In this document: piece by piece, positions 36,949-62,300 of the stretch
How the letters are laid out: every line of letters starts with the position of its first letter
Position numbering within the stretch: the stretch's first letter is position 1
Assembly: GCA_965230895.1 (NCBI GenBank)
Contig: OZ246394.1
Span: 1,249,887-1,313,886 of the forward strand
Direction: 5' to 3'
Source: an uncultured Gammaproteobacteria bacterium
Lineage (GTDB): Bacteria; Patescibacteriota; Microgenomatia; Levybacterales; UBA12049
Length of the DNA stretch: 64,000 nt
Position numbers and translations under genes: made by a program
The notes under the pieces: model-generated
What the model saw: only the letters and a program-made list of their open reading frames with translations
The model's database searches: none
What the model was told of the DNA's origin: nothing

Positions 36949-37518
36949 TTATTTTTCAAACATTACCGGGATGACAAGTGGGCCTAATTCTCCTCGAGAG
37001 AAGTCAGGATTAGTTCTTTCAATTACTAGCTTTCCTGCTGATGTTGTTGCTTCTGCTTTGGTAAATACAACTGCTCCTGTGAAAGGAACAAAACTATCTG
37101 TCTTTGTACTTTCGAGTGCTTTAAATGGTTTTAAGAAAAGAATCTTTCCTTTATCATCTTCCAAACGAACCATTAATTGATCTGCATAATACCATCCTCC
37201 GACAGCTTCTCCCGTAACTCTGAATGGACTTGTAACGAGTGTATTTGGCTTTGGCTCAGTTGTTTTAATAACTTCTTTAAGAAGTACGCCATTATATACT
37301 TCTACAAATACTTGCTTCCCTTTTGTGTAACATTCTCGAGGCTTTGACTCGACTACAAGATTGCCTGCTTCGGCACACTCTTCAAATGTTTTTATTTCTG
37401 TAGCAGCTTTGGGTTTGAGATTACCAAGGAGATTCGGGAAGAAAAAGAAGACGCCGACAGCAGCGAGGAGAAGGGTAACAACGAGGGCGATAATTGCGTA
37501 TTTCATGGCAGTATACAA
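36949..37518 (-). CDS. Membrane-anchored Gmad2-like immunoglobulin-fold domain protein
   Basis: N-terminal TM helix. The C-terminal ~110 aa (VTSPFRVTGEAVGGWYYADQLMVRLEDDKGKIL...FTGAVVF...GKLVIERTNP) resembles the Gmad2 domain pattern. Confidence 0.45.
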   Translation of the reverse strand: MYTAMKYAIIALVVTLLLAAVGVFFFFPNLLGNLKPKAATEIKTFEECAEAGNLVVESKPRECYTKGKQVFVEVYNGVLLKEVIKTTEPKPNTLVTSPFRVTGEAVGGWYYADQLMVRLEDDKGKILFLKPFKALESTKTDSFVPFTGAVVFTKAEATTSAGKLVIERTNPDFSRGELGPLVIPVMFEK

Positions 37519-37557: not shown

Positions 37558-38295
37558 TCATTTCGCTGGCTGCAGAATTAATTGATCACCGACAATTCCT
37601 ACAATATGATTTCTTTGTTTCGGAAATAATAGGGTGCGTCCAGTTTCGCGAATATACTTCCTAAGTGTCTTAATATTTGGAAGTGTTGATTCATTATATA
37701 TAGCTGGGTCTGCATCCATATTTCCAAACAATTTGTAGATGTCGTTATCTTTAATAGTCTTTGGATATACGGAAAGTTTTGGAAGGAGTTTCCCATATCT
37801 GATTGGGGCACGTTTTGTTTCTTTAGATTGTTGCTCGCTAAATGTATTCCATTTCTTAAACTCTTTTTCAGAAAGATGCATTGTCCCTGTACAGAATTCA
37901 CTGTCACAGATACATGTATGTGTACATGGCGTACAAAAATCTGATGAACTTAATTGGTATGAAATTGTTAATTCTTCTCCTTGAAAGATTTTTCTAAGCG
38001 CAAAAAATAGTGTATGACCTTTATATGTGTAAATCCAACTATTTGGAGTGCATGAATGGTTCACCATATGCGCTCCTGGTTTTCTTAGATTTTCGGGGTA
38101 GAGTGCTGCATAATCGTGATAATAAAGGAGGTATAAACCATCTTTTTCACTTGTATCTTCTTCAGCTATTTTTATTACCTTACCTATATAATCCGCAATA
38201 ACTGTTCCTGGCTTGATTTCTTTCTTTGCAAAAATACCACGCCCTTTTTTCGGAGTCTCTTTAATTTCCCAATACGAACTATCTAGAAGAATCAT
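37558..38295 (-). CDS. SET-domain protein-lysine methyltransferase with Cys-rich post-SET region
   Basis: GRGIFAKKEIKPGTVIADYIG (GxG), HMVNHSCTPN (NHSCxPN signature), GEELTISY (ELxxxY), then the post-SET CTPCTHTCICDSEFCTG. A leaderless-type TACAAT lies 7 nt upstream of the ATG. Confidence 0.8.
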   Translation of the reverse strand: MILLDSSYWEIKETPKKGRGIFAKKEIKPGTVIADYIGKVIKIAEEDTSEKDGLYLLYYHDYAALYPENLRKPGAHMVNHSCTPNSWIYTYKGHTLFFALRKIFQGEELTISYQLSSSDFCTPCTHTCICDSEFCTGTMHLSEKEFKKWNTFSEQQSKETKRAPIRYGKLLPKLSVYPKTIKDNDIYKLFGNMDADPAIYNESTLPNIKTLRKYIRETGRTLLFPKQRNHIVGIVGDQLILQPAK

Positions 38296-38496
38296 GGAGG
38301 CAATTGTACCCTAGTAATTGCGATCGTGGCAAGTGGAACGTATACTGTTATATATGAAGAAGCGGTTACTGATAAAAGATAAAAAATTGCGAGATAAAGT
38401 TAAAGAGGGTAGGGAAGGCGCAAAAAAAGACTTTTTTGAGTTATTAAAGCGCGCTGTAAAGCGCTAGAACACCCTTTAATTATTTCAGACGATGTA

Positions 38497-38976
38497 TTAA
38501 TCATCTTTCTGGACTTCATCATATTCGATCTTGTAAAAGAACTTCCACATACTGAGACCAGACTTCTTTTGTTCTTTGTCGTCAAGGCTTAGCAGATCCC
38601 CATTGTTCATTTCCATTAATTCATAAATACTCCTACACATTCTCCATGCTGTTTTGTAGGTTACTCCTAACTCTTTTTGAACTTGTTTAATAGATATTTC
38701 TCCACGTGTCTGTGTCATAAAAAAAATTGCGAAGAACCATAATCGAAGTGGGGTAGATGACCTTTCAAAAATCGTTCCTCCAAGTGGGTATATATGGTTA
38801 CGGCAGTCTTTACATGCATAGGAAGTCCGATTTTTTATCTTGTAGTGTTTTGTAATTTGCTTACAGCCTTTGCAGTATACTCCTTTTGGGTACTGTAGTT
38901 TTTTGATTTCTTCCAGACATGCCTCGTCATCTGGAAAACTTTGTAGAAAGTCGTGAAAAGAAAATTCTCCTCCCAT
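38497..38976 (-). mobile_element. IS1595-family transposase N-terminal fragment (zinc-ribbon plus HTH only; DDE domain absent), a remnant or domesticated DNA-binding module
   Basis: GVYCKGCKQITKHYKIKNRTSYACKDCRNHIYPLGGTIFERSSTPLRLWFFAIFFMTQTRGEISIKQVQKELGVTYKTAWRMCRSI parallels the IS1595 Tnp N-terminus (C..C...C..C zinc ribbon, PLRTWF...KKG.SAK.L.R.LGV.Y..AW). The ORF stops at 159 aa and no DDE-like frame continues downstream. Confidence 0.6.
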
Positions 38977-44310: not shown

Positions 44311-47300
44311 TTATTCTAGTGGTGTTGCTGAGGAGAGTTCTTGTGGTTTTTCTATTCCGATTTGCATGATCATTTCTGTCTCTGAGAACGCGATTCCAAC
44401 TGGAACTTCCTTTACAGCATTTGCTGGTGCTTCATCTGTGAGTGCACCTGAAACTCCCAAGAAATATTGTTTACCAACTTCCAAGTTGTTCAATACATTT
44501 GCTTTTCCTCCGATAATGATTGTGACATCTTTACCAGCTTGCGCATCGCTAGCAGCGATACCAACTACTACTGTCTTTGCTTCATCTGTTGCATCAGCAA
44601 TCATTACTTCTTTGGTAGCTGAGATGTAAAGCGCATCTCCTTTTTTAATATCTTCACCAGCCTTTGCTGTGATAGTGATAGCTCCAGCAAGATCGATATT
44701 ACCGCCCACTTTGATGTTTTCTTTGGTCTCAACATTCTTTGCGACGATATTGCCCTTAGTGATCATTGATCCATTCTTGTCGATGATCATCGCGCCGTTG
44801 AAGATATCAAGCAAGTTCGCGAGTGGTGACTTCTGCAAGAACAAGATACCATCTGTTGGTTCTTGGCCATTTTCGATTGGTGAGCCAAAGACACTAATTT
44901 CATTTTCTGTGACAGAGAGTGTACCGCCGACATTGATTCGATCATCAACTGTGAGGACTCCTGCGACATTTGTATCTTCGAGTGTTGTCTTGCCTGTCAC
45001 CATGATATCTCCTGAAATTGTTGTGTCACCGAGATATGATTTGCCGAATGACTTGAATGTATCTTGAACAGTTGCAGTGTACGCAGTAAATTCACCACTG
45101 ATTGTTGCTGTTGCAAAGATTGCATTATCAGTAGGGGATGCAGAATTTGTCGCGATCAACAAGTCAGGTGAAGTAAGATCTTCAGCTGATGGAGTTGGCT
45201 CTGCACTTTCACTTGCTGTTGGAGTAGCAGAAGGTGAACCGACGCCACTTGTTGGAGTAGGGGTAGCTGAGACATTAAGACTTGCGATCAAGTCATCAAG
45301 TCTCTGACTCAAACTAGCGAGATCTGCTGAATTTGATGCATTGTTTATCTCTGCAAGTTGTTGTTCCAAGTTAGCGAGCTGTGCATCAGTTGAAGCAACT
45401 TTGTCTCCAAGGATTGCTGCATTGCTTGCTGCTTCTTCAGCTTTTTGTTGTGCTGCTGCAAGTGCTGCAGCCTTAGATGCTTCTTGTGATTCGAGATTTG
45501 TAAGTCGACTATCAAGTTGGTTTGTCTTTTCTTCGAGACTGATTGCACTTGCTTGAAGTGAACTTATAGCAGTTGTCTTATTTGTGAGACTGTTGTTAAC
45601 AGCCAAGAACGCATCAGCCAATGATCCATTAACAACTTGTCCATCGATCTGCATGTTGGATGGGAGGACGACATCTCCAGTTTCGATTGTCTCTTCATCA
45701 GTAAGGATAGCCAATTTGTTACTTGGATCAGCAAATGTAATATTGACGAATGTCATAACCTTACCAACACCTGTTCCAGTGAAGTCTTCAAGTGCTTTAC
45801 CGATAACTTGTCCTGGCTTCGTTGCTTTCATAGCGATACCAGCAACTGATGAAGAAGTGAGGTAATCGCCCTTTTTGATCTGTCCATTTTCTGTACTCAC
45901 CTTGACTGGGACACGTCCAGCAAGAGCAACTGGTACAGCCTTGCCACCACTGATCATTTGTTCATTTTGTGATAATCTAAAGCCTGGTTTCTCGCTGTAA
46001 ACACCGATTATTGTAGTATCATATGTACCCTCTGATTTCTTAACGTTTTCATCAACATTTTGGTCGATAGAAAGGACGTCACCGGCTTGCAGTGAATCGT
46101 CTTGCGTACCATAATCTTCAGCCAAATCATAGTTGCCGCCGTTGGTTGTAAGTGTTCCAGACAATGTCGCGTTGCCAGTACTGTCGATAGAGAAGAGTTC
46201 TTGGTTTGCTGCATTCTTCCACATGAACTTGTTGGTGTCAATTCCTGTGTAGTCGGATGCCAACTTACTGATAACATCTCCATTGATTCCTTGGATTGAT
46301 CCTGAGAGCAAGTCGAGGAGAGGAGTCTTAACTGATCCTGAAGCTGTAACATCTCCGAATGCTGCTGAACTTGCAGTAAGATCTCCAAGAATATCGAAGT
46401 TACCATTATGAGTCCAAGCGCCGAGGCCAGAGTATTCCGGTACAGCATTTGGATCAGCATAAGCATTAACAACATATACCATGACAGTGGTTTTTCCACT
46501 ATTTGGATCCCAATCTTCCAGAGCTTTACCGACAATAAATCCTTTTTGTGTTGCCTTCATACCTTTACCTGATTCAGCAGATGTCGTAACGAAATCACCG
46601 GTTTGAATTGCAGGAGATGATGCAGAAATCTTTACAGGGACACGGCCATTCAAAGCAATTGGCATCGGTCGATCTGCTTCTTCAATATTATGTCCAATAC
46701 TATTAAAGTCACCTGCATTATCTGGATTTGAAACGATACCAATAGTACTGGATTGATATTCAGAGGTTGTTTTAACAAGTTTTGATACTCTTTCACCATC
46801 TTTAGTTGTGATGTATGTAGATCCTGGAGCTACGATATCACCTGTTTCGATATCATCATCAACTGAATACATTTCCATATAGTCGGCTGCAGGTGTTGAT
46901 GTACAATCTCGGATAAGGACATTGGTCGTTATACCATTTCCATTTTCTCCACAAAGTGCTTCGTCTGAACTGCCGCTTGCAAGGTCAATCATCAATGTGC
47001 CGTTAATATTAACAACACCGTTGGTATTGTTATCAATAGTTTCACCATTCTGGAGTTGGATATCGTTGGTGATATTTGTATTAGAGAACGTCAAACCTGT
47101 GCCTGTACTTGCACCAATTGTAACGTTACCAGCATTTGCTACGGTAAATACTGATGTACCTGAGTCTTTAAGTTCCATGAGTGGTCCAGTTCCAGCGTTG
47201 TTGACAACAAGTGCTGTTCCTGATGTCGTACCATTTACATTGACGATAGGTTGGGTAGTCGAACTACTCGCAACATCAAGTGCTGCTCCTGGAGTGTATG

Positions 47301-50300
47301 TATTGATACCCAATTGTCCTGTTTGTGTTGTACTAGTACTTCCCATTGCAGGATTAACGATATTCCAGTACAAACCATTGCCAATCGGAGTAATGTTATT
47401 GATACCGAAGTCAGACATAACTGTACCAGTCTTACCTACGACGAGACCCTTGATGTAATGGTTATTGTTTGATCCACCAGTACGAGCACCAAATCCGAAC
47501 TTCGTGTTGTCTGGATTGTACAAGTTACGAGTGTAAACGTCTCGGTAGTTGAGAACTGGTTGACCATCGATACGAACAACGATTTCGTTTCCTCGGATGA
47601 TGATATCTGCTTGCTTAAATTGGTTTGTATCGATAGTACCGTTTGGCAACACAGCTACAGCAAGTGGGTTACCAGCACCGCCACCAGTTGTGCATTGTCG
47701 ACCATCGGTAAATGGTCCGTATGTGATACCGATACAATCGTTACCTGAACCAGCACCGTATTCACTGAAGTAGATGATGTAACCCTGGGTCATGCCAGCA
47801 CCGTATTCAGTTGTAGGAACAGCATTTGCATAACTGTAGAACCAAGTACCATCAGCACCTGTACCACCACCAGCTTTGAAGTTAAATTGGATGTGTTCAT
47901 AAGGAAGCTGGTTGAAGTCCCAGTTGATTGAACCATTCTGGTTGTTTGCATTTGATGTAAGTCGAACTCCGTTACCACCACCGACGTATGATGCATTACC
48001 AGAAAGGGTAGGGACTGGATCTGCCTGGCTTCCAGTTGTTGGATCGTTAACACCGTCCCAGTAAGCGAGTGCAGCATTGGTGATAGCTGTATTAAGTGAT
48101 GCCAAACCGATATTACCTGATCCATCGACACCCAAGATACTTGTGAATGCACCAGTTGCTGTTTGTGCTGTTGTTACCTGACTGATTCTCAAACCTGAAA
48201 CATTGGTTGTACCAGAATTAATCGTAAGTGTGTTATCAAGTGATGTTGGTCCGTGCAATGTAAGTGCACCAGTGTTATTTCCGATTGTTGTTGCTGCAGT
48301 TCCAGTACTGTTGATGAGAGTTGTTCCAGTTACAGTAAGTCCGTTACTTGTTACGATTCCGTCACAAGTGAGGTTACCATTTGCATTGAATACTGTACAT
48401 CCAGTTGTACCAGTTCCACCAGCCAATTCGATGTTTCCAGTTGAAACGTTACCGATTCGGATATTTCCGGTTGTTCCAGCATTAATACTGAGTGGAGTAG
48501 CAGCAGTTGTTACGCCAAGAGCAGGAGCATTTCCAGCAAGCGAAATTGTGTTTGAGTTAATGGTGAATGTTCCTGAACCAAATGTGATTGCTCGGTTATT
48601 TGTTGTGTTAATACCAAGTGTTCCAGTTCCAGAAAGATCAAAGATTGGGTTGTTACCAGTTAAGTTAAATGCAGTAGATGCAAAGTTTGATGTTGCACCG
48701 GATACTGTCAAACCACCATTGATTGTTGTTGTACTTCCAGATGCTCCGATTGAAAGGGTAGAAGCGCCGCCACCAATGTTAAGTGTTGATGTTTGTACTG
48801 TGTTAAACAAGTTTACTGTTGTTCCAGAAGTTGCATACAAGTCACCGCCGTTAACGATCAAGTCGCCAGTCATTGTTGTATTACCAGTTCCAAGGAATGA
48901 GTATGATGGGTTAGTTGAACCGTTACCGAATGAGATGTTTTCTGTACCATTTGTTGTGTTGATGTTAATGTAATTGTTTGCACCTTCCTGGATATCAAGA
49001 GCATCTGTATTGTTATCAACCAAGTTTGCAGTGATATCATTTCCAGCACCATTTGCTGTTAATGTAACAGTTGTTCCAGAAGCAGTGATTGCATCTCCAC
49101 CGTCTCCGATGTTTGCGATACCATTTGCAGTGAGTGTACCAGCAACGGTTAATCCATTATTTACTGTTGTTGTGCCAGTTGCTGCACCGAGTGAGACAGT
49201 TGTAGCAGCTCCGCCGATGTTCAATGTAGTAGCAGTTGTGTTGAACAAGTTCGCTGTTGCTTTTGCAGCAGTTAACGTTGATTGAGTAGTTCCATCGATT
49301 GTCAAACCACTTGATGCTGTTACTGCGCCGGTCAATGTAGAAATACCATCAACAGTTAATGTACCGTTTGCCTGTATGTTTCCAGCGTTACTGATACTCA
49401 CACCAGTTGACCCATAACCTCCGCCAACATTTACTGTATCAAATCCTGCAGTTGCACTTGTTGCTGCAATACTTGTTGCGTTAGGGAAGTTGATTGTTGT
49501 TCCTCGGATATTTCCAGTCGCATTTGTTGCGCCCAAAGTGTATGTTGTTGCAGCTCCACCGATATTCAATGTCGTTGCTCCAGTGTTGAAGAGGGAAGCA
49601 GTACCAGCAGTTGTTGTAAGATCTCCACCATTAAGAGCTGCATCTCCACCACTTGTGATGTCACCATTTGCACCGTTGACTGAGAAGTTTGTACCAGCGA
49701 TATCATTTGCACCAATTGAAAGAGCTGTTCCGATATCTGCATTACTGACATCAAGCGCAGTTGTAACATTGCCACTTGGTGTGCCAACGATTCTCAAAGC
49801 GATTGGCAATGCTCGATCGGTGTCTTGGTTTTGGATCAAAACGAGTTGTGTAGGATCTGCTGTCCCAGCGCCATTTGCCCGTGAGATTTCAATGCCACCT
49901 GTTGAACCAGTTGCCGTTGTAACTGTGAACTTAGAATCAGCAGTAGTGTCAGCAAGAGTGAATGCGATATCTTTGTTGTTTGTTGTTGTGATTGCATTGC
50001 CATTGTCATATGCACTTTGGAGACTTTGTGATGCAGCTGCACAAGTAACAACTTGGTTTGAACCATTTGTACAAAGTCCAGTTCCAGTAGCAGTTGTCAA
50101 ACCATTCAATGTTAAGAATGAATCAGCATCTGAAGTGATAGTAACTCCATTTGTTCCTGATGGTGAGAAGTTAGATTGACCATTTGCTGTGAATGTCTGA
50201 CCTGATGCAACTGTCAAACTACTGTTAAATGTTGCTGTTCCTCCAGCTGCACCGATTGCCATTGTTGTAGCAGCGCCACCGATGTTTACTGTTGTTGCGT

Positions 50301-53300
50301 TTGCATTAACCAAATTGAATGTTCCGGCAGTTGTTGTAATATCACCACCATTTACAGCAACGTCTCCAGTAGCAGTGACATTACCAGTTAATGTTGAAGT
50401 TCCATCGACAGTTAAGGTCCCATTTGCTTGGATATTTCCAGTGTTACTGACACTAACTCCAGTTGATCCGTATCCACCACCGATTGAGAGGGAATCAGCA
50501 TTGAATGCTGCTGTCAAAGCAGAGATTGTTGTTGCATTGTTGAAGTTAATTGTTGTTCCTCGGAGGTTTCCAGTCGCGTTGGTTGCACCGATTGTGTATG
50601 CAGTTGCAGCGCCACCCATGTTCAATGTCGTTGCATTTGTATTGAATACTGTTGCCGTACCAGTTCCTGATGTTGTGATGTCGCTTCCATTGACAGCCAA
50701 GTCACCTGATGTTGTGATATTACCAGTTGATCCAGTGATAGAGAAGTTAGTTGCTGATAAGTTGCTTGCACCAAGAGCGATACCAGTTGTGATACTTGCA
50801 TCAGAGACATCAAGTCCAGTTGTAACGCCACCACCACCAGATGATGTAACCTTCAAACCTGTTGGAACAGCTCGATTTGTGTCAGCATTGTCGATCAAGA
50901 TCAATTGTGCAGGATCTGAAGTGCCAGCACCATTAGCTCGTGAGAATGTAGAGAATCCAGTTGATCCATCAGCAGTTGTAACAGCGAAGTTAGAATCAGT
51001 TGCAGTGTCAGCGAGTGTGAATCCGATGTTTCGAGCATCTGTTGTTGTGATAGTGTTACCGTTGTTGTATGCAGTTTGCAAGTTAAGTGAAGATGCATTA
51101 CATGTACCAACATTATTTGATCCATCAAGACAGAGTGTAGTACCAGCAACTGATTGCAAACCAGTCAAGATCAATGTTGAATCAGCATCAGTTGCGAAAG
51201 TAATATCATTTGTACTATTTGGTGAGAATGAAACTGCACCAGCTGTTGTGAATGTACTGTTGTTTCCGACTGTCAAAGCATTTCGGACAGTTGTTGTACC
51301 TGTTGTTGCACCGAGTGTCATTGTTGTTGCAGCTCCACCAACATTCACTGTTGTTGCGGTTGTATTAAACAAGTTCGCTGTTGTCTTTGATGAGATCAAA
51401 TCTGATGTCGATGCACCATTGATTGTAACTCCATTTGATGCTGTAACTGCACCTGTCAATGTAGAAGTTCCGTCAACTGTGAGGTTGCCATTTGCTTGGA
51501 CATCTCCAGCACTTGAAACTGAAACTCCAGTTGAACCATAACCGCCGCCGATTGCAGTTGATGAGATGTTTAATGCTGCTGAATTTGCAGTGATTGATGT
51601 TGCGTTAGGGAAGTTGATTGTTGTACCTCGGATATTTTGTGTTGCATTGGTTGCACCGGTTGTGATACTTGTTGCTGCACTTCCCATTGTTACTGTTGTT
51701 GCATTTGTATCAAAGAGTGAGCCAGTAGTTGCAGTTGTTGAAAGTGTACCGCCATTAACTGCGACGTTTCCAGCAGTTGTGATGTTACCATTCGCTCCTG
51801 AGATAGAGAAGTTACTTGCTGAGACATCATTTGCACCGAGTGAAAGTGCTGTAACGATAGATGCATCTGAGAGATCAAGTGCAGTTGTTACACCAGCGCC
51901 ACCAGTTGATCCGATCTTGAGTCCTGTTGGCAAGATTCGATCAGCATCAGCATTGTCGATCAAGACGAGTTGTGATGGATCAGCAGATCCTGCGCCATTT
52001 GCTCTTGCGAAGACTGTTCCGCCAGTTGAACCATCAGCAGTTGTGATGTTGAAGTTAGCATCAGTTGCAGTGTCAGCCAATGTGAATCCGATGTTTCTGT
52101 TATTTGTTGTAGTGATTGTATTTCCATTGTCATAAGCAGCTTGCAAACTTGCATTTGCTGTCAAATCACATTTAACAACTTGATTTGAACCGTTAACACA
52201 AAGTGTTGGTTGTGCACCTGATGCTGTTGTCAAACCACTGATTGTTAAGAATGAATCAGAATCTGTTGCGATTGTTACACCATTTGTACTGTTAGGGGAG
52301 AATGATACTGCGCCAGTTGTTGTGAGCGCACTATTGTTAGCAACAGTCAAAGCATTTCGGACAGTTGTTGTACCAGTAGTTGCACCGAGTGAAACAGTAG
52401 TTGCTGCGTTACCAATATTCAATGTCGTTGCGTTTGTATTGAATAATGTTGCTGTTGCGAATGTTGTTGTAAGGTCTCCACCATTAAGAGCCAAGTCACC
52501 ACTTGAAGTGATGTTACCAGTCAATGTTGATGCTCCGTCAACTGTCAATGTACCATTTGCTTGGATGTTGCCAGCGTTACTGACACTAACTCCAGTTGAT
52601 CCATATCCGCCACCGATTGTTGCTGCATCGATTGTGAGAGTTGCGCCACTTGCATTCAATGCTGTTGCATTTGGAAGACTGACAGTTTGATTATTAATTG
52701 TTGCTGTACCACTTGCTCCACCGATGTTCAATGTTGTAGCAGCTCCAGCGAAGTTAACAGTCGTTGCAGTTGCATCAACCAAGTTGAATGTTGTCTGGTT
52801 TGTTGAGATAGTTCCACCATTTGCAGCGATTGAACCATTAGTTGAAAGGTTACCGTTACTACCAGTGAGTGAGAAGTTGGTTGCTGTGATGTCATTTGCG
52901 CCAAGTGAAAGTGCATTGACGATTTCAGCATCTGAGAGATCAAGTGCGTTTGTGATTCCACCAGCTGCAGCTTGGACTTTAATACCTGCTGCAACTGCTC
53001 GGTTTGTATCCAAGTTATCAACCAAGATCAATTGGTTTGGATCTGCAGTTCCAGCGCCATTTGCTCGAGTGAATGCTGAGTAACCAGTTGATCCATCAGC
53101 TGTTGTGATAGTGAAGTTACTATCAGTTGTTGTGTCAGCAAGTGTAAATCCGATGTCTCGTGCATCAGTTGTAGCAATTGTGTTTCCAGCATTATATGCA
53201 GCTTGGAGAGAGAATGATGCAGCTGAACATGTACCAACGTTATTTGATCCATCAACACAGAGAGTTGATCCGGCAACTGATTGCAAACCAGTTAATACCA

Positions 53301-56300
53301 ATGTTGAATCAGCATCAGTATTGATTGTGATATCACTTGTACTTGCTGGAGTAAATGATACTGCACCAGTTGAAGTGAGTGAACTGTTGTTACCGATTGA
53401 AAGGTTGTTGTTAACAGTTGTCGTACCAGTTGCTGCGCCGAGTGAAACAGTAGTCGCAGCACCACCAACATTCAATGTTGTTGCTCCTGTGTTGAATAGT
53501 GTTGCAGTACCAGATGTTGTCGTAAGATCTCCACCGTTCAATGCGATGTCTCCAGTTGCAGTAACATTTCCAGTTAATGTGGAAGTGCCATCAACAGTTA
53601 ATGTACCGTTTGCTTGAATGTTACCAGCATTACTGATTGTTGCACCAGTAGAACCGTATCCACCGCCGATTGCAACACTATCAAATGTAGCAGCAGCTTG
53701 TGGAGCAGTGAATGATGTAGCGTTAGCAAAGTTAATTGTTGCGTTTCTGATGTTAGCTGTACCAGTTGTTGCACCGATATTTAATGTCGTTGCAGCACCA
53801 CCAACATTAAGTGTTGTTGCTGTTGTATTGAAGAGGGAAGCAGTTGTTTGATTAGTTGTAAGATCGCCACCATTAACTGCGATATCACCAGCAGTTGTGA
53901 TGTTTCCATTTGAACCAGTGATTGAGAAGTTCGTTGCACTGACATCATTTGCACCGAGTGAGAGAGCGTTAACGATTGATGCATCTGAAAGGTCAAGTGC
54001 AGTTGTCACACCAGCTCCACCAGATGATCCGATTTTCAAACCAACTGGCAAGATTCGATCTGCATCCAAGTTATCGATCAAGACTAATTGTGTTGGATCA
54101 TTTGTACCAGCACCATTTGCTCGAGCAAATACTGAGTAACTTGATGAATTATCAGCTGTTGTTACTGAGAAGTTAGAATCAGTAGCTGTATCAGCCAAAG
54201 TGAATGAGATGTCTCGGTTGTTTGTTGTTGTGATAGTGTTTCCATTGTTGTATGCAGCTTGCAAACCTTGTGACGCTGAGTTACATGTACCAACGTTATT
54301 TGAACCATCGATACAAAGTGCTGTTCCTGTAAGTGACTGCAAACCAGTCAATACCAAAGTTGAATCAGCATCAGTATTGATTGTTACATCGTTTGTACTG
54401 TTAGGGGAGAATGATACTGCACCAGCGGTTGTGAATGTACTGTTGTTTCCAACAGTCAAAGCGTTTCGAACTGTTGTTGTACCAGTTGTTGCACCGAGAT
54501 TAAGAGCTGTAGCAGCACCACCAACATTCAATGTTGTTGCTGTAGTGTTAAACAAGTTCGCTGTTGTTTGTGTTGTGTTGATTGTTCCTGAGTTAGCATT
54601 GATGTTGCCAGTTGCAGTTAATGTACCAGAAACAGTTGCTGCGCCATCAACCCCGAGATTACCATTCATATTGATGTCTCCAGCATTTGTGATTGTTGTA
54701 CCACTTGAACCATAACCGCCACCGATTTGGATACTGTCAAATGTTGCTGCAGCTTGAGGAGCAGTGAATGAAGTTGCATTAGCAAAGTTGATTGTCGCGT
54801 TTCTGATGTTTGCAGTACCAGTAGTTGCTCCGATATTTAATGTGGTAGCAGCGCCACCGACGTTCAATGTCGTTGCATTTGTATTGAACAAGTTAGCTGT
54901 TGTTTGGTTTGTATTGATTGTTCCGGAATTAGCATTGATATTTCCTGAGAATGTACTTGCGCCAGTTCCGAGGAATGAGAATGTTGGATTAGTTATGGTG
55001 TTACCGAATGCAAGATTCTCAGCACCATTTGTTGTGTTCAAGTTAATGTAGTTATTTGAACCTTCCTGGATATCAAGAGCGTTTGCATTACCATCAACAA
55101 CATTTGCAACCAAGTTGTTATTCAATGTTGTTATGCCAGTTCCAGCACCAAGTGCAACTGTTGTAGCAGCACCACCGATGTTGAGTGTCGTAGCAGTTCC
55201 ATTGATCAAGTTAAATGTTCCAGCAGTTGTTGTAAGGTCGCCACCATTCACTGCGATGTCGCTTGCAGCAGTTACATTACCAGTTAATGTTGAAGTACTA
55301 TCAACTGTCAAAGTTCCGTTTGTTTGGATATTTCCAGCATTACTGACTGTCATACCAGTTGAACCGTAACCGCCGCCGACATTTAATGTGTCGATGTTTG
55401 CAGTAGCACCAGTTGCATTGATTACAGTTGCATTTGGAAGTGAGATTGTCGCATTGTTGATTGTTGCTGTTCCAGTGTTTGCACCCAAGTTCAATGTAGT
55501 AGCAGCGCCACCAATATTCAAAGTAGTAGCAGTTCCATTGAAGAGGGAAGCAGTGGTTTGATTTGTTGTAAGATCTCCACCATTAACTGCAACGTCTGCT
55601 GCTGTTGTAACATTACCTGTCAAAGTTGAAGTACCATCGATTGTTAATGTTCCGTTTGCTTGGATATTTCCTGTACTGCCAAGTGTTACACCAGTTGAGC
55701 CGTATCCGCCGCCAGCGTTAACAACATCAAATCCAGCTGTTGCTGAAGTACCATCAATTGTTGTCGCGTTAGGGAAGTTGATTGTTGTTCCTCGGATGTT
55801 ACCAGTTGCTCCAGTTCCACCGATTGTGTATGTGTTTGCAGCGCCGCCGATATTCAATGTCGTAACTCCAGAGTTAAGGAGATTGAATGTTGTTGCACTT
55901 GATGTTACGTCACCACCATTTACTGCAACGTCACCAGCAGTAGTGATGTTACCAGTTGCTCCGATAGTTCCTGAAGTTGAAACATTACCATTAGAACCGG
56001 TTACTGAGAAATTAGTACCAGTGATATCATTTGCACCGAATGAAAGAGCAGTACCGATTTCAGCATCTGATACATCAAGTGCTGTCGTGATGCCACCAGC
56101 AGCTGATTGGATCTTAATACCTGCTGGGACAGCTTCATTTGTATCCAAGTTCTCAACCATTACGAGTTGTGCTGGTGGAGTTGTGTTTGTGCCGTTAGCC
56201 AAACCGAAGTATGAATAGCCAGTTGATCCTGCAGCTGTTGTAACAGTGAAGTTAGAATCAGTTGATGTGTTAGCCAAGTTGAATGCGATGTCTCGTGCGT

Positions 56301-59300
56301 CTGTTGTTGTGATTGTGTTACCACCAGCATATGCGTTTTGGAGACTGAGTGTTGCATTTGCACATTGGACAACATTGTTTCCTCCGTCGAGACAGAGTGG
56401 AGTACCGGTTGTTGTTCCCAAACCATTCAAGATTATTGTTGAATCAGTATCAGTTGTGAAGGTTATGTCATTTGTACTGTCTGGAGCAAATGTACTTGCA
56501 CCATTTGCTGTGAATGATTGACCAGTTGCGACAGTTGCTCCAGCATTGAATGTTGCCAAGCCAGTTGCAGTTGTTGTTCCGTCGATCAAAAGGTCATTCT
56601 TAATGTTTGTTGTACCAGTTGCAGCACCCAAGTTAAGAGCAGTAGCAGCGCCGCCAACATTCAATGTTGTAACGCCAGTGTTCAAGAGATTAAATGTGCC
56701 AGCAGATGAAGTTAAGTCTCCACCGTTAATTGCGACATCACCAGTTGCAGTTACATTTCCGGTTAATGTAGAAGTGCCATCGATTGTTAAGTTGCCATTT
56801 GCTTGGATGTTTCCAGCATTAGAGAGAGTTGCTCCAGTTGATCCATATCCACCACCAACGTTCAATGTATCAAATCCAGCAGTTGCTGAAGTTCCATCGA
56901 TAGTTGTTGCATTAGGGAAGTTGATAGTTGTTCCTCGGATGTTTCCAGTTGCTGATGTTGCACCCAAAGTGTATGTCGTTGCAGCGCCACCGATGTTAAG
57001 CGTTGTAGCATTTGTATTGAACAAGTTAGCTGTTGTTTGGTTTGTAGCCAATGTTCCAGAATTTGCATTGATGTTGCCAGTTGCTGTAATTGTCCCTGAT
57101 GTTGTGATGTTTCCGTTACTGCCAGTGATAGAGAAGTTCGTAGCAGTGACATCATTTGCACCGAGTGATAATGCATTAACAATTTCAGGATCTGAGAGAT
57201 CAAGGGCATTTGTGATACCACCAGCAGCTGATTGGATTCGGATTCCAGCAGCGACAGCTCGATCTGTATCCAAGTTATCAACCAAGATCAATTGTGCAGG
57301 GTCTGAAGTTCCAGCGCCATTTGCTCGTGCGAAGATACTTGTACCAGTTGAACCATCAGCTGTTGTAACTGTGAAGTTAGAATCAGTTGCAGTATTTGTC
57401 AATGTGAATGCGATGTCTCGAGCATCTGTTGTGTCGATTGTATTGCCACCAACATATGCATTTTGGAGATTAAGTGTTGCATTTGCACATTGGACAACAT
57501 TATTTGATCCGTCGAGACAAAGTGCTGTACCAGATGCTGTTCCAAGTCCAGTTAAGATGAATGTTGAATCAGCATCAGTTGCAAAGGTAATGTCATTTGT
57601 ACCGTTTGGTGTGAATGTACTTGTACCGTTTGCTGTCAATGTTTGGCCTGATGGGATAGTTGCGCCACCATTGAATGTTGCCAAACCAGTTGCAGTCAAA
57701 GCATTATTGACTGTTGTTGTTCCAGAACCAGCACCAAGTGAAACAGTTGTTGCAGCGCCACCGATATTCAAAGTAGTAGCAGTTCCGTTAAAGAGGGAAG
57801 CAGTTGTTTGGTTGGTTGTAAGATCTCCACCATTGACCGCTACGTCTGCACCAGCTGTTACATTTCCTGTAAGTGTTGAAACTCCATCGATTGTCAAAGT
57901 TCCATTTGCTTGGATGTTTCCAGTATTTGAAAGGGTAGTGCCAGTTGAACCGTATCCGCCACCGATTTGAATACTATCAAATGTTGCAGCAGCTTGAGGA
58001 GCAGTGAATGACGTAGCGTTAGCAAAATTGATAGTAGCGTTTCGGATGTTTGCAGTACCAGTAGTTGCACCAAGTGTGAGTGAAGTAGCAGCGCCACCAA
58101 TATTCAATGTTGTAGCAGTTGTATTGAACAAGTTACCAGTTGTCTGTGATGTAGCAATTGTTCCTGAATTAGCATTGATGTTGCCAGTGAATGTGCTCGC
58201 ACCAGTTCCTAAGAATGAGTAAGTTGGATTGGTTGTTGTGTTACCGAATGAGATGTTTTCAGCACCGTCAGTTGTGTTGACGTTAATGTAATTGTTTGTA
58301 CCTTGTTGGATATCAAGAGCATTTGCATTGTTATCAACCATGTTGACGTTCAAGTTGTTATTCAATGTCGTTGTACCTGTACCAGCACCGATGTTTACAT
58401 CTGTAGCAGCGCCACCAACGTTAAGTGTTGTAGCATTTGTGTTTGCGATGTTCATTGTACTTGCGCTTGTTGTGATGTCGCCACCATTTACAGCAACATC
58501 ACCAGCAGCTGTTACATTGCCAGTTAGTGTAGAAGTACCATCAATTGTGAGATCTCCGTTTGCTGAGATGTTTCCATTGTTTGCGATAGTAGCACCAGTT
58601 GATCCATAACCTCCACCGACATTCACTGCATCAACATTTGCAGTAGCTCCAGTTGCATTGATTGCAGTTGCATTTGGAAGTGAGAGCGTAGCATTGTTAA
58701 TTGTTGCTGTACCACTGTTTGCACCGATGTTCACAGTTGTAGCAGCTCCACCAACGTTCAATGTTGTAGCATTTGCATTGAAGACATTTGCAGTTCCAGC
58801 AGTTGTTGTAAGTGAACCGCCGTTAACTGCAACGTTTCCAGCAGTTGTGATGTTTCCGTTACTACCAGTGATAGAGAAGTTAGTCGCAGTTACATCATTT
58901 GCTCCGAGAGATAATGCGTTAACGATTTCAGGATCTGAAAGATCAAGAGCATTCGTGATTCCACCAGCTGCAGCTTGGATCTTGATGCCAGCAGCAACAG
59001 CTCGGTCTGTGTCCAAGTTATCAACCAAGATCAATTGTGCAGGGTCTGAAGTTCCAGCGCCATTTGCTCGAGTGAATGTTGAGTAGCCAGTTGAACCATC
59101 AGCTGTTGTAACTGAGAAATTACTGTCAGTTGTTGTGTTAGCCAACGTGAATGCGATGTCTCGAGCATCTGTTGTATTGATTGTATTTCCACCATTGTAT
59201 GCAGATTGCAATGTTGTTGTGTTCGCTGAACACTTTGTAACGTTGTTACTACCATCAACACAGAGTTGTGAACCAGCTGTTACTGGGGTTGTAAGGCCTG

Positions 59301-62300
59301 AGATGTTCAAGAATGAATCAGTATCAGTTGTGATGTTGATGTCATTAGTGCCATCAGGTGAGAAGTTAGATTGGCCATTTGCATTGAATGTTTGACCAGT
59401 TGCGACAGTTGCACCAGCATTTGCAGTGATCAAGCCAGTAGCAGTCAGCGCATTGTTAACAGTTGTTGTGCCAGTACTTGCACCGAGTGAAACAGTTGTT
59501 GCAGCGTTACCGATATTCAATGTAGTTGCAGTTGCATTGAAGAGGGAAGCAGTTGTTTGGTTTGTAGTGATGTCTCCGCCATTAACTGCGATGTCTCCAC
59601 CTGCTGTTACATTACCAGTTAATGTTGATATACCATCAACAGTTAGTGTACCGTTTGCTTGGATGTTTCCAGTGTTACTGATTGAGACTCCAGTTGAACC
59701 GTATCCACCGCCGATTGCTGTTGATGCAAATGTCGCAGCAGCATTTGGAGCAGTGAATGATGTAGCATTACCGAAGTTAACTGTTGCATTGTTGATGTTT
59801 GCAGTACCAGTAGTTGCACCGATATTTACTGATGTAGCAGCACCTCCAACGTTCAATGTTGTTGCATTTGCATTGAAGACATTTGCAGTTCCAGCAGTTG
59901 TTGTAAGTGAACCACCGTTAACTGCAACGTTTCCTGCTGTTGTGATGTTACCATTTGAACCATCGATAGAGAAGTTAGTAGCAGTGACATTATTTGCACC
60001 GAGTGAGAGCGCATTCACGATTTCAGCGTCAGAGAGATCGATTGCATTGGTGATTGTTCCAGCAGCTGATTGGATCTTAAGACCTGCTGCGAGTGTTTCA
60101 TTTGCGTCATTATTTTCGATCAAGACCAATTGTCCAGCAGGAGCAGCATTTGAGCCATCAGCCAAACCGAAGTATGAATAGCCAGTTGATCCAGCTGCTG
60201 TTGTGACTGTGAAGTTAGCATCAGTTGTTGTGTTATCAAGTGTGAAGTCGATATCTCGGCCATCAGTTGTAACGATTTCATTGCCACCATCATATGCACC
60301 TTGCAACGTAACTGCTGCAGTTGAACAGATAACGATGTTGTTACTACCATCAATACAAATGTTATCTCCAGCAGCAGTTGTAAGACCTGAAACATTCAAG
60401 AATGAATCAGCATCAGTTGTGATGTTGATGTCATTTGTCCCGTCAGGAGAGAATGTTGATTGACCATTTGCTGAGAATGTCTGACCAGTCGCAACAGTTG
60501 CACCAGCATTAAATGTTGCGAGACCAGTTGATGTTGTTGTTCCATCGATAAGCAAATTGTTGTTAACATTTGTAGTTCCAGAACCAGCACCGATGTTAAC
60601 TGAAGTACCAGCACCAGCGATGTTAACTGTAGTTGCAGTTGCATTGAAGAGGGAAGCAGTTGTCTGACTTGTTGTGATGTCGCCTCCGTTAACTGCGAGA
60701 TCAGCACCAGCAGTGACGTTTCCAGTCAATGTTGAAGTACCATCAACAGTTAATGTGCCGTTTGCTTGGATGTTTCCACCATTTGAAAGGGTAGTACCAG
60801 TTGAACCATAACCGCCACCAATTTGGATTGAATCAAATGTAGCAGCAGCTTGAGGAGCAGTAAATGATGTTGCATTCGCAAAGTTGATTGTTGCATTTCG
60901 GATGTTAGCTGTACCAGTTGTTGCGCCGATATTAAGAGTTGCAGCAGCACCACCAACATTAAGCGTAGTAGCAGTTGTGTTGAACAAGTTACCAGTTGTT
61001 TGTGTTGTAGCCAATGTTCCAGAGTTAGCATTGATGTTTCCAGTAGCAGTGATAGTTCCACCAGTTGAAACGTTTCCGTTAGAACCGGTTACTGAGAAGT
61101 TAGTTCCAGTGATATCATTTGCACCGAATGAGAGAGCAGTACCAATTTCAGCATCACTTACATCAAGCGCTGTTGTGATACCGCCAGCAGCTGATTGGAT
61201 TCGGATTCCAGCTGCGATTGCTTCATTGGTATCGTTATTTTCAATCAATACCAATTGATTTGCAGGAGCAGCATTTGAGCCATCAGCCAAACCGAAGTAT
61301 GAGTATCCAGTTGAACCAGCAGCTGTAGTAACAGTGAAGTTACTGTCAGTAGCTGTATCAGCCAAAGTAAATCCGATGTTTCGGTTGTTTGTTGTTGTGA
61401 TAGTGTTTCCAGCATCGTATGCAGATTGCAATGTTCCAGCAGTTGTTGTACAAACAACGACATTGTTACTGCCATCGAGACAGAGGTTATCGCCAGTACC
61501 AGTTCCCAAACCGTTCAATGTGAAGAATGAATCAGCATCAGTGTTGAATGTTATACCGTTTGTGCTGTCAGGGGAGAAGGTTGACTGGCCGTTTGCTGTG
61601 AATGTTTCGCCAGTTGCGACAGTTGCGCCGCCATTAAGTGTAGCCAAATCATCAACTGTCAAAGCGTTGTTCACTGTTGTTGTTCCTGATCCAGCACCGA
61701 TATTAACTGAAGTTGCAGCTCCGGCTACATTTACTGTTGTAGCATTTGTATTAAAGACATTTGCAGTTCCAGCTGTTGTTGTAACATCTCCACCATTTAC
61801 AGCGACATCACCAGCAGTTGTAACATCTCCAGTTAATGTAGAAGTACCATCAACTGTGAGGTTGCCATTTGCTTGGATGTTACCAGTGTTACTGATACTA
61901 ACTCCAGTTGAACCGTAACCGCCACCGATTGTTGTACTATCAAGTGATGCAGCTGCGAGACTTGCATCTATTGTTGTAGCGTTAGGGAAGTTGATAGTTG
62001 TTCCTCGGATAGTTCCAGTTGCTGAAGTTCCGCCGATTGTGTAAGCAGTGGTTGCGCCACCAACATTGAGTGTCGTTACTCCAGTGTTGAGGAGATTGAA
62101 TGTACCAGCAGAGGATGTTAAGTCACCACCGTTTACAGCAATGTCACCAGTAGTTGTTACGTTGCCAGTTAATGTTGAAGTTCCATCGATAACCAAATTA
62201 CCATTTGCTGAGATGTTACCGTTATTTGCAAGTGTTGTACCAGTAGAACCATAACCGCCACCAACTGCGATTGAATCAAATGTCGCAGCTGCATTTGGAG

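Follow-up and report, generated by a model that had tools for sequence, protein, structure and literature searches.

The stretch of DNA considered here, a 64,000-nucleotide window of contig OZ246394.1 (assembly GCA_965230895.1, positions 1,249,887 to 1,313,886), encodes on its reverse strand an intact SET-domain protein whose SET and post-SET module is, to judge from its sequence conservation, under strong purifying selection. The protein belongs to a sizeable and uncharacterized subfamily that is restricted to the Candidate Phyla Radiation (CPR) and whose members were previously labelled “SET domain-containing protein” in NCBI. It is very probably an active methyltransferase, and we favor, with a probability of roughly 0.6, the reading that it modifies an endogenous and probably nucleic acid-associated protein of the bacterium itself. 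The gene, its parts, and its promoter are as follows, with positions counted from the first nucleotide of the window:

37558–38295, reverse strand: complete coding sequence of the 245-amino acid SET-domain protein, from the list of open reading frames (ORFs); stop codon at 37558–37560
37954–38244, reverse strand: SET catalytic domain, residues 18–114, with GRG at 18–20, Y36, NHSCTPN at 79–85 and EELTISY at 107–113
37876–37935, reverse strand: predicted zinc-binding post-SET region, residues 121–140, with C128-x-C130-x4-C135 (acting with C82) and an extra tetrad of C121, C124, H126 and H140
37561–37875, reverse strand: family-specific basic C-terminal tail, residues 141–245, modelled as a helix (143–158), an extended segment (159–207), a helix (208–218) and a small beta sheet (222–242)
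38303–38332, reverse strand: sigma-70-type promoter in leaderless layout, its -10 box ending 7 nucleotides 5′ of the ATG, with no Shine-Dalgarno sequence

The catalytic core and its predicted zinc sites

The assignment to the SET family is supported by profile, motif, and fold. Specifically, the Pfam SET profile (PF00856), which the first-pass annotation had proposed as a check, matches over its full length (positions 1–105) with 69.9 bits against a gathering score of 22.4 (E = 2.9e-19), and the SET beta-fold with its pseudoknot is present in the structural model. The three signatures on which that annotation based its call (GxG, NHSCxPN, and ELxxxY with the invariant tyrosine) align to the same motifs of human MLL1, including the NHS motif and catalytic tyrosine that it had singled out as decisive. 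One genome per GTDB species was scanned with two peptide patterns; this yielded 66 loci, which are not a census, and the conservation and neighbor counts given here cover 64 related loci. N79, C82, E107, and Y113 are kept in all 64, and in a set of 44 sequences G18, G20, N79, C82, P84, E107, E108, and Y113 are invariant.

The cysteine-rich post-SET region noted earlier also holds up. C82, C128, C130, and C135 are conserved in 64 of 64 loci, and the C128-x-C130-x4-C135 motif aligns to the post-SET segment PCNCGAKKC of MLL1, such that the protein has both the CxCxxxxC motif and the NHSC cysteine from which SET1/MLL enzymes build their zinc site. By this likeness, the four residues presumably form a canonical post-SET zinc site and would bind zinc. 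The near-invariance of catalytic and zinc residues across the 64 loci suggests an enzyme that is active and kept so by purifying selection. The position two residues before the invariant tyrosine is isoleucine here and isoleucine or valine across the family, whereas MLL1 has tyrosine; we take this position to be the Phe/Tyr-switch site of MLL1, G9a, and DIM-5, and because the residue is non-aromatic we make no call on mono-, di- or trimethylation.

What the first-pass annotation overlooked, having recognized the post-SET cysteine cluster, is a second set of potential ligands and the conserved C-terminal tail that follows. The protein contains six cysteines (C82, C121, C124, C128, C130, and C135), which are fully or nearly invariant across the family, and C121 and C124 combine with H126 and H140 in a C-x2-C-x-H...H tetrad that 54 of 64 loci keep whole; the three members that diverge most have all four residues replaced together. 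Since the tetrad is conserved and is lost as a set, it probably makes up a further structural zinc site that is interleaved with the post-SET one.

The closest known module is the SET and post-SET pair of the eukaryotic SET1/MLL (KMT2) enzymes, for example human MLL1 (PDB 2w5y and 7w6a) and yeast Set1 (6ven). The likeness does not extend to the flanks: the SET fold begins about 9 residues after the N-terminus, leaving no N-SET or WIN region, no Pfam domain other than SET is found in the 245 residues, and neither the C-x2-C-x-H...H tetrad nor the basic tail of about 105 residues is present in MLL1. Because of these missing flanks and domains the protein is KMT2-like in its core only and not a KMT2 member. 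Its setting also differs, in that a bacterial host has neither nucleosomes nor the WRAD partners of the SET1/MLL enzymes.

A subfamily of the Candidate Phyla Radiation and its basic tail

The first-pass annotation correctly recognized a bacterial SET protein and missed the large CPR family, already labelled as SET domain-containing in NCBI, to which it belongs. A homology search across 5.8 billion proteins found 579 homologues. The best 120 of these are 238–322 amino acids long (nearly all about 240–255), with 95–100% query coverage and 51–68% identity; named entries among the best 120 are called “SET domain-containing protein”, “hypothetical protein” or “uncharacterized protein”, and named sources are Candidatus Levybacteria, Parcubacteria, and one metagenome-assembled genome (MAG) labelled Methylomirabilota. 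In the scan of GTDB species, related genes likewise occur in many CPR lineages. The credible labels among these loci are all from the CPR (Levy-, Roizman-, Curtiss-, Woese-, Davies- and Gottesmanbacteria, Microgenomates, Parcubacteria/Paceibacteria, and “Patescibacteria group”), include the complete Woesebacteria genome CP011214, and go with 35–67% identity to the window protein. A long form of about 245 amino acids is found mainly in Levybacteria-like genomes, including that of the window, and a short form of about 194 amino acids, ending near residue 190, in other Microgenomates classes. The closest relative among the loci (L006) has 67% identity and shares local synteny with the window, and a protein identical to that of the window (P0001) is found in NCBI, on a 1.61-Mb contig, and in several Logan assemblies.

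Several incidental observations concern these records. Many MAG records that carry the CPR-type gene are titled “uncultured Gammaproteobacteria bacterium”, which is probably a placeholder. The window contains no SET paralogue; L012 and L024 are two SET copies from one Levyibacteriota MAG, and in L059 a second SET ORF of 125 amino acids (628–1005) lies about 0.5 kb upstream of the family member.

The tail (residues 141–245) has no Pfam match. When 1.84 billion representative proteins were searched with a profile built from it, 121 matched, essentially all of about 190–260 amino acids with the tail placed after a SET domain, or truncated fragments; three matches, in repeat proteins, are spurious. 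Use of the tail as an independent domain elsewhere was hence rejected, as the search found it only behind this SET domain or in fragments, and by the same search the combination of post-SET, CCHH tetrad, and basic tail is found only in the CPR family. The tail is consistently basic (mean net charge +7.7, isoelectric point 9.7), and the SET and post-SET core is slightly acidic (-3.2, isoelectric point 6.2). In the structural model the extended segment 159–207 is confidently placed, and the predicted local distance difference test score of residues 157–176 is about 91 in the full-length protein versus about 70 in a model that lacks the SET core. This drop suggests that the segment packs on the catalytic core, and the basic tail would probably serve in docking of the substrate or of nucleic acid.

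The same segment invites a more specific proposal, compatible with the endogenous-substrate reading and adding a mechanism to it, in which a conserved K/E-T-K-R motif of the tail (residues 158–162) would sit in the lysine channel, either as a pseudosubstrate or as a site of automethylation, and would gate activity much as the Clr4 autoregulatory loop or the automethylation of NUE does. This motif resembles the R-T-K context of H3K4, presumably the methylation site of the nearest relatives with solved structures; in at least 90% of closer homologues T160 and K161 are kept, and residues 157–176 are confidently placed only with the SET core. Automethylation has a precedent in NUE (PMC10117894). 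Nonetheless, residue 161 is lysine in only 44 of 64 loci, arginine in 5, and proline, glutamate or glutamine in others, and we consider autoregulation of this kind unlikely.

An endogenous substrate or a host-directed effector

As we picture it, the protein would be a soluble, cytoplasmic, catalytically competent SET protein-lysine methyltransferase. S-adenosylmethionine (SAM) would be bound at the pseudoknot formed by GxG and NHSCxPN, and the zinc-stabilized post-SET region would close a channel, beside the invariant Tyr113, that admits the target lysine, with the family-specific basic tail packed on the core to dock the substrate or nucleic acid. Methyl groups would pass from SAM to a protein lysine, as they do in the closest structural relatives; that the SET fold instead acts on a small molecule or on another type of residue, as in BurB or the histidine methyltransferase SETD3, strikes us as most improbable. 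The substrate would be an abundant endogenous protein associated with nucleic acid, either of the nucleoid or of the ribosome and translation machinery, and not a host histone. Distribution, conservation, and the lack of export features together make such a substrate the likeliest. In particular, a stand-alone gene that is apparently kept by vertical descent in the Microgenomates most likely has an endogenous substrate, and full-length identity of 50–68% across many CPR lineages is more in line with a housekeeping gene passed on vertically than with an effector aimed at a host. The favored functional model comes from other small SET proteins of prokaryotes that stand alone, as Methanosarcina mazei Go1-SET and Chlamydia cpnSET have proposed substrates among their own chromatin proteins, MC1-alpha and Hc1, respectively (PMC10117894); the CPR protein is likened to them in its size, its stand-alone form and its proposed endogenous substrate.

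The first-pass annotation had left two options side by side, action on the bacterium's own proteins and action as an effector. In the latter, an episymbiont would deliver the protein into a bacterial, archaeal or eukaryotic host, where it would methylate chromatin or other proteins of that host in the manner of Chlamydia NUE and Legionella RomA/LegAS4. In favor of this, CPR bacteria probably live attached to hosts, the catalytic core resembles eukaryotic histone H3K4 enzymes most closely, and two copies occur in some genomes (L012 and L024). Furthermore, the characterized bacterial SET proteins covered by one review are mostly secreted nucleomodulins, exported from pathogens of eukaryotes by type III or type IV secretion systems (T3SS or T4SS) and carrying nuclear localization signals or ankyrin repeats (PMC10117894). 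The CPR protein differs from these, which include RomA/LegAS4, NUE/cpnSET, Burkholderia BtSET, and Bacillus anthracis BaSET, in showing no Sec-type export signal and in being part of a family that is broadly conserved in the CPR. Neither a signal peptide nor a membrane segment is found in it, the maximum Kyte–Doolittle hydropathy over 19 residues being 0.6, in agreement with the initial remark that no secretion signal was obvious. The AnkI/LegAS4 equivalog model (NCBIfam NF043024) matches just 28 residues, with 16.7 bits where the cut-off is 550, and the protein has no ankyrin or other host-interaction domain. Likewise, no secretion genes occur among the neighbors in the window or at the related loci, and the high full-length conservation across distant CPR lineages also speaks against a host-directed role. 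An effector function therefore has no support in this sequence or its context, and we hold it to be quite unlikely; the option of action on the cell's own proteins fits better, and stays tentative.

Several points weigh against the endogenous-substrate reading and should be set beside it. No candidate nucleoid substrate emerged in the window, no known fold is matched by the tail, and no gene family is conserved next to the SET gene, the best reaching 8 of 64 loci at mixed offsets. Export of a T3SS or T4SS type, or by an unrecognized contact-dependent route, lies beyond what sequence tools predict. One MAG labelled Methylomirabilota and one labelled Desulfobacteraceae fall outside the CPR, where mis-binning may be at work; these two labels, too, are probably placeholders or mis-binned, so taxonomy drawn from titles of all these kinds is not to be trusted. 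In addition, the 66 pattern-retrieved loci do not give the prevalence of the gene within the Microgenomates. The case for methylation of nucleoid proteins specifically is circumstantial and consists of the basic tail, the cytoplasmic features, and the vertical-looking conservation.

Experimental work on bacterial SET proteins has dealt almost entirely with secreted effectors of pathogens, and a literature search found no paper that mentions SET domains together with Patescibacteria. A SET and post-SET enzyme that is conserved across a major lineage of the CPR, keeps its catalytic residues intact and lacks export features suggests an endogenous role of lysine methylation in ultra-small, host-dependent bacteria, and a prokaryotic family with a core closest to eukaryotic KMT2 is relevant to the debate on how SET methyltransferases arose. 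One can go further and imagine a vertically inherited, SET1/MLL-like “writer” of the Microgenomates, with a two-zinc post-SET region and a private docking tail, that places methyl-lysine marks on the cell's own nucleoid or ribosomal proteins and is possibly gated by the K-T-K motif. In this full form the proposal is doubtful; if true, bacteria would have SET methylation as a housekeeping system, and a prokaryotic lineage would possess in full the SET and post-SET module that otherwise characterizes the histone methyltransferases of eukaryotes. Until a substrate comes to light, the practical value stays limited.

Expression signals and genomic neighborhood

The gene uses the organism's own expression signals, as its layout is typical of the genome. 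Its promoter (-35 TTGCCA, an 18-nucleotide spacer, -10 TACAAT) matches 10 of 12 consensus positions, and the 7 bases between the -10 box and the ATG read TGCCTCC. Across the window, a -10 hexamer with at least 5 of 6 matches lies 5–8 nucleotides 5′ of the start in 12 of 39 long ORFs, versus 2.4% of all ATG triplets (binomial p = 7e-11), and a Shine-Dalgarno-like motif precedes only 2 of the 39. Leaderless starts hence dominate in the window, and the initial description of a native leaderless promoter was sound. The composition of the gene (GC 35.1%, 25.2% at third codon positions) is likewise within about 1.5 standard deviations of the other genes of the window.

Three neighboring features are referred to below:

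38497–38976, reverse strand: 159-amino acid Zn_ribbon_IS1595 protein (PF12760, E = 1.7e-8) with no transposase core, immediately upstream of the SET gene
38354–38467, forward strand: 37-amino acid ORF rich in lysine and arginine (MKKRLLIKDKKLRDKVKEGREGAKKDFFELLKRAVKR), divergent from the SET gene
44311–63951, reverse strand: giant ORF of 6546 codons with a TTG start, occupying the last 20 kb of the window

When ORFs were called in the 64 related loci and four neighbors per side were clustered, the lack of a conserved neighbor meant that genomic context gives no functional clue, and an operon partner was rejected on the same figures. Downstream of the SET gene lies a Gmad2-like Ig-domain protein, and other unrelated neighbors in the window include a Wzy_C/TPR membrane protein, an aminotransferase, and a PAS histidine kinase. 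The Zn_ribbon_IS1595 gene has a leaderless-type promoter of its own (TTGACA, 18 nucleotides, TATCAT) and neighbors the SET gene in no more than 4 of 64 loci, one of them that of the window. Carriage as mobile-element cargo was rejected, since flanking repeats are only short, AT-rich chance ones and the GC content is not deviant. Membership in a defense system was rejected as well, as PADLOC gives no match for the SET protein or its downstream neighbor (36949–37518); the upstream Zn-ribbon protein has a marginal match to ZorE (E = 0.0017, 15.8 bits). The two halves of the giant ORF contain no credible Pfam domain, their sole match being a 20-residue UBA_RAD5A hit that is probably spurious.

RNA-related genes occur at low frequency near the SET gene (L041, L045, L043, L012, and others). 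A cold-shock-domain protein is encoded directly downstream in 4 of 64 loci, a DEAD-box helicase nearby in 7, and a CxxC zinc-ribbon/RGG protein in 6, a signal too weak to call linkage.

The 37-amino acid ORF was considered as a linked substrate and is not a consistent partner, as just 3 of 64 loci have it. Pfam gives no match for it, and it is not called as a gene in public assemblies. Its promoter (-35 TTGCGA, a 17-nucleotide spacer, -10 TATACT) again ends 7 nucleotides before the ATG. A version in L018, placed 4 kb away from the SET gene, has 49% identity, and in L006 the ORF is found at the same position with 86% amino acid identity and nucleotide differences of 5, 2, and 10 at the first, second, and third codon positions, a pattern expected of coding sequence.
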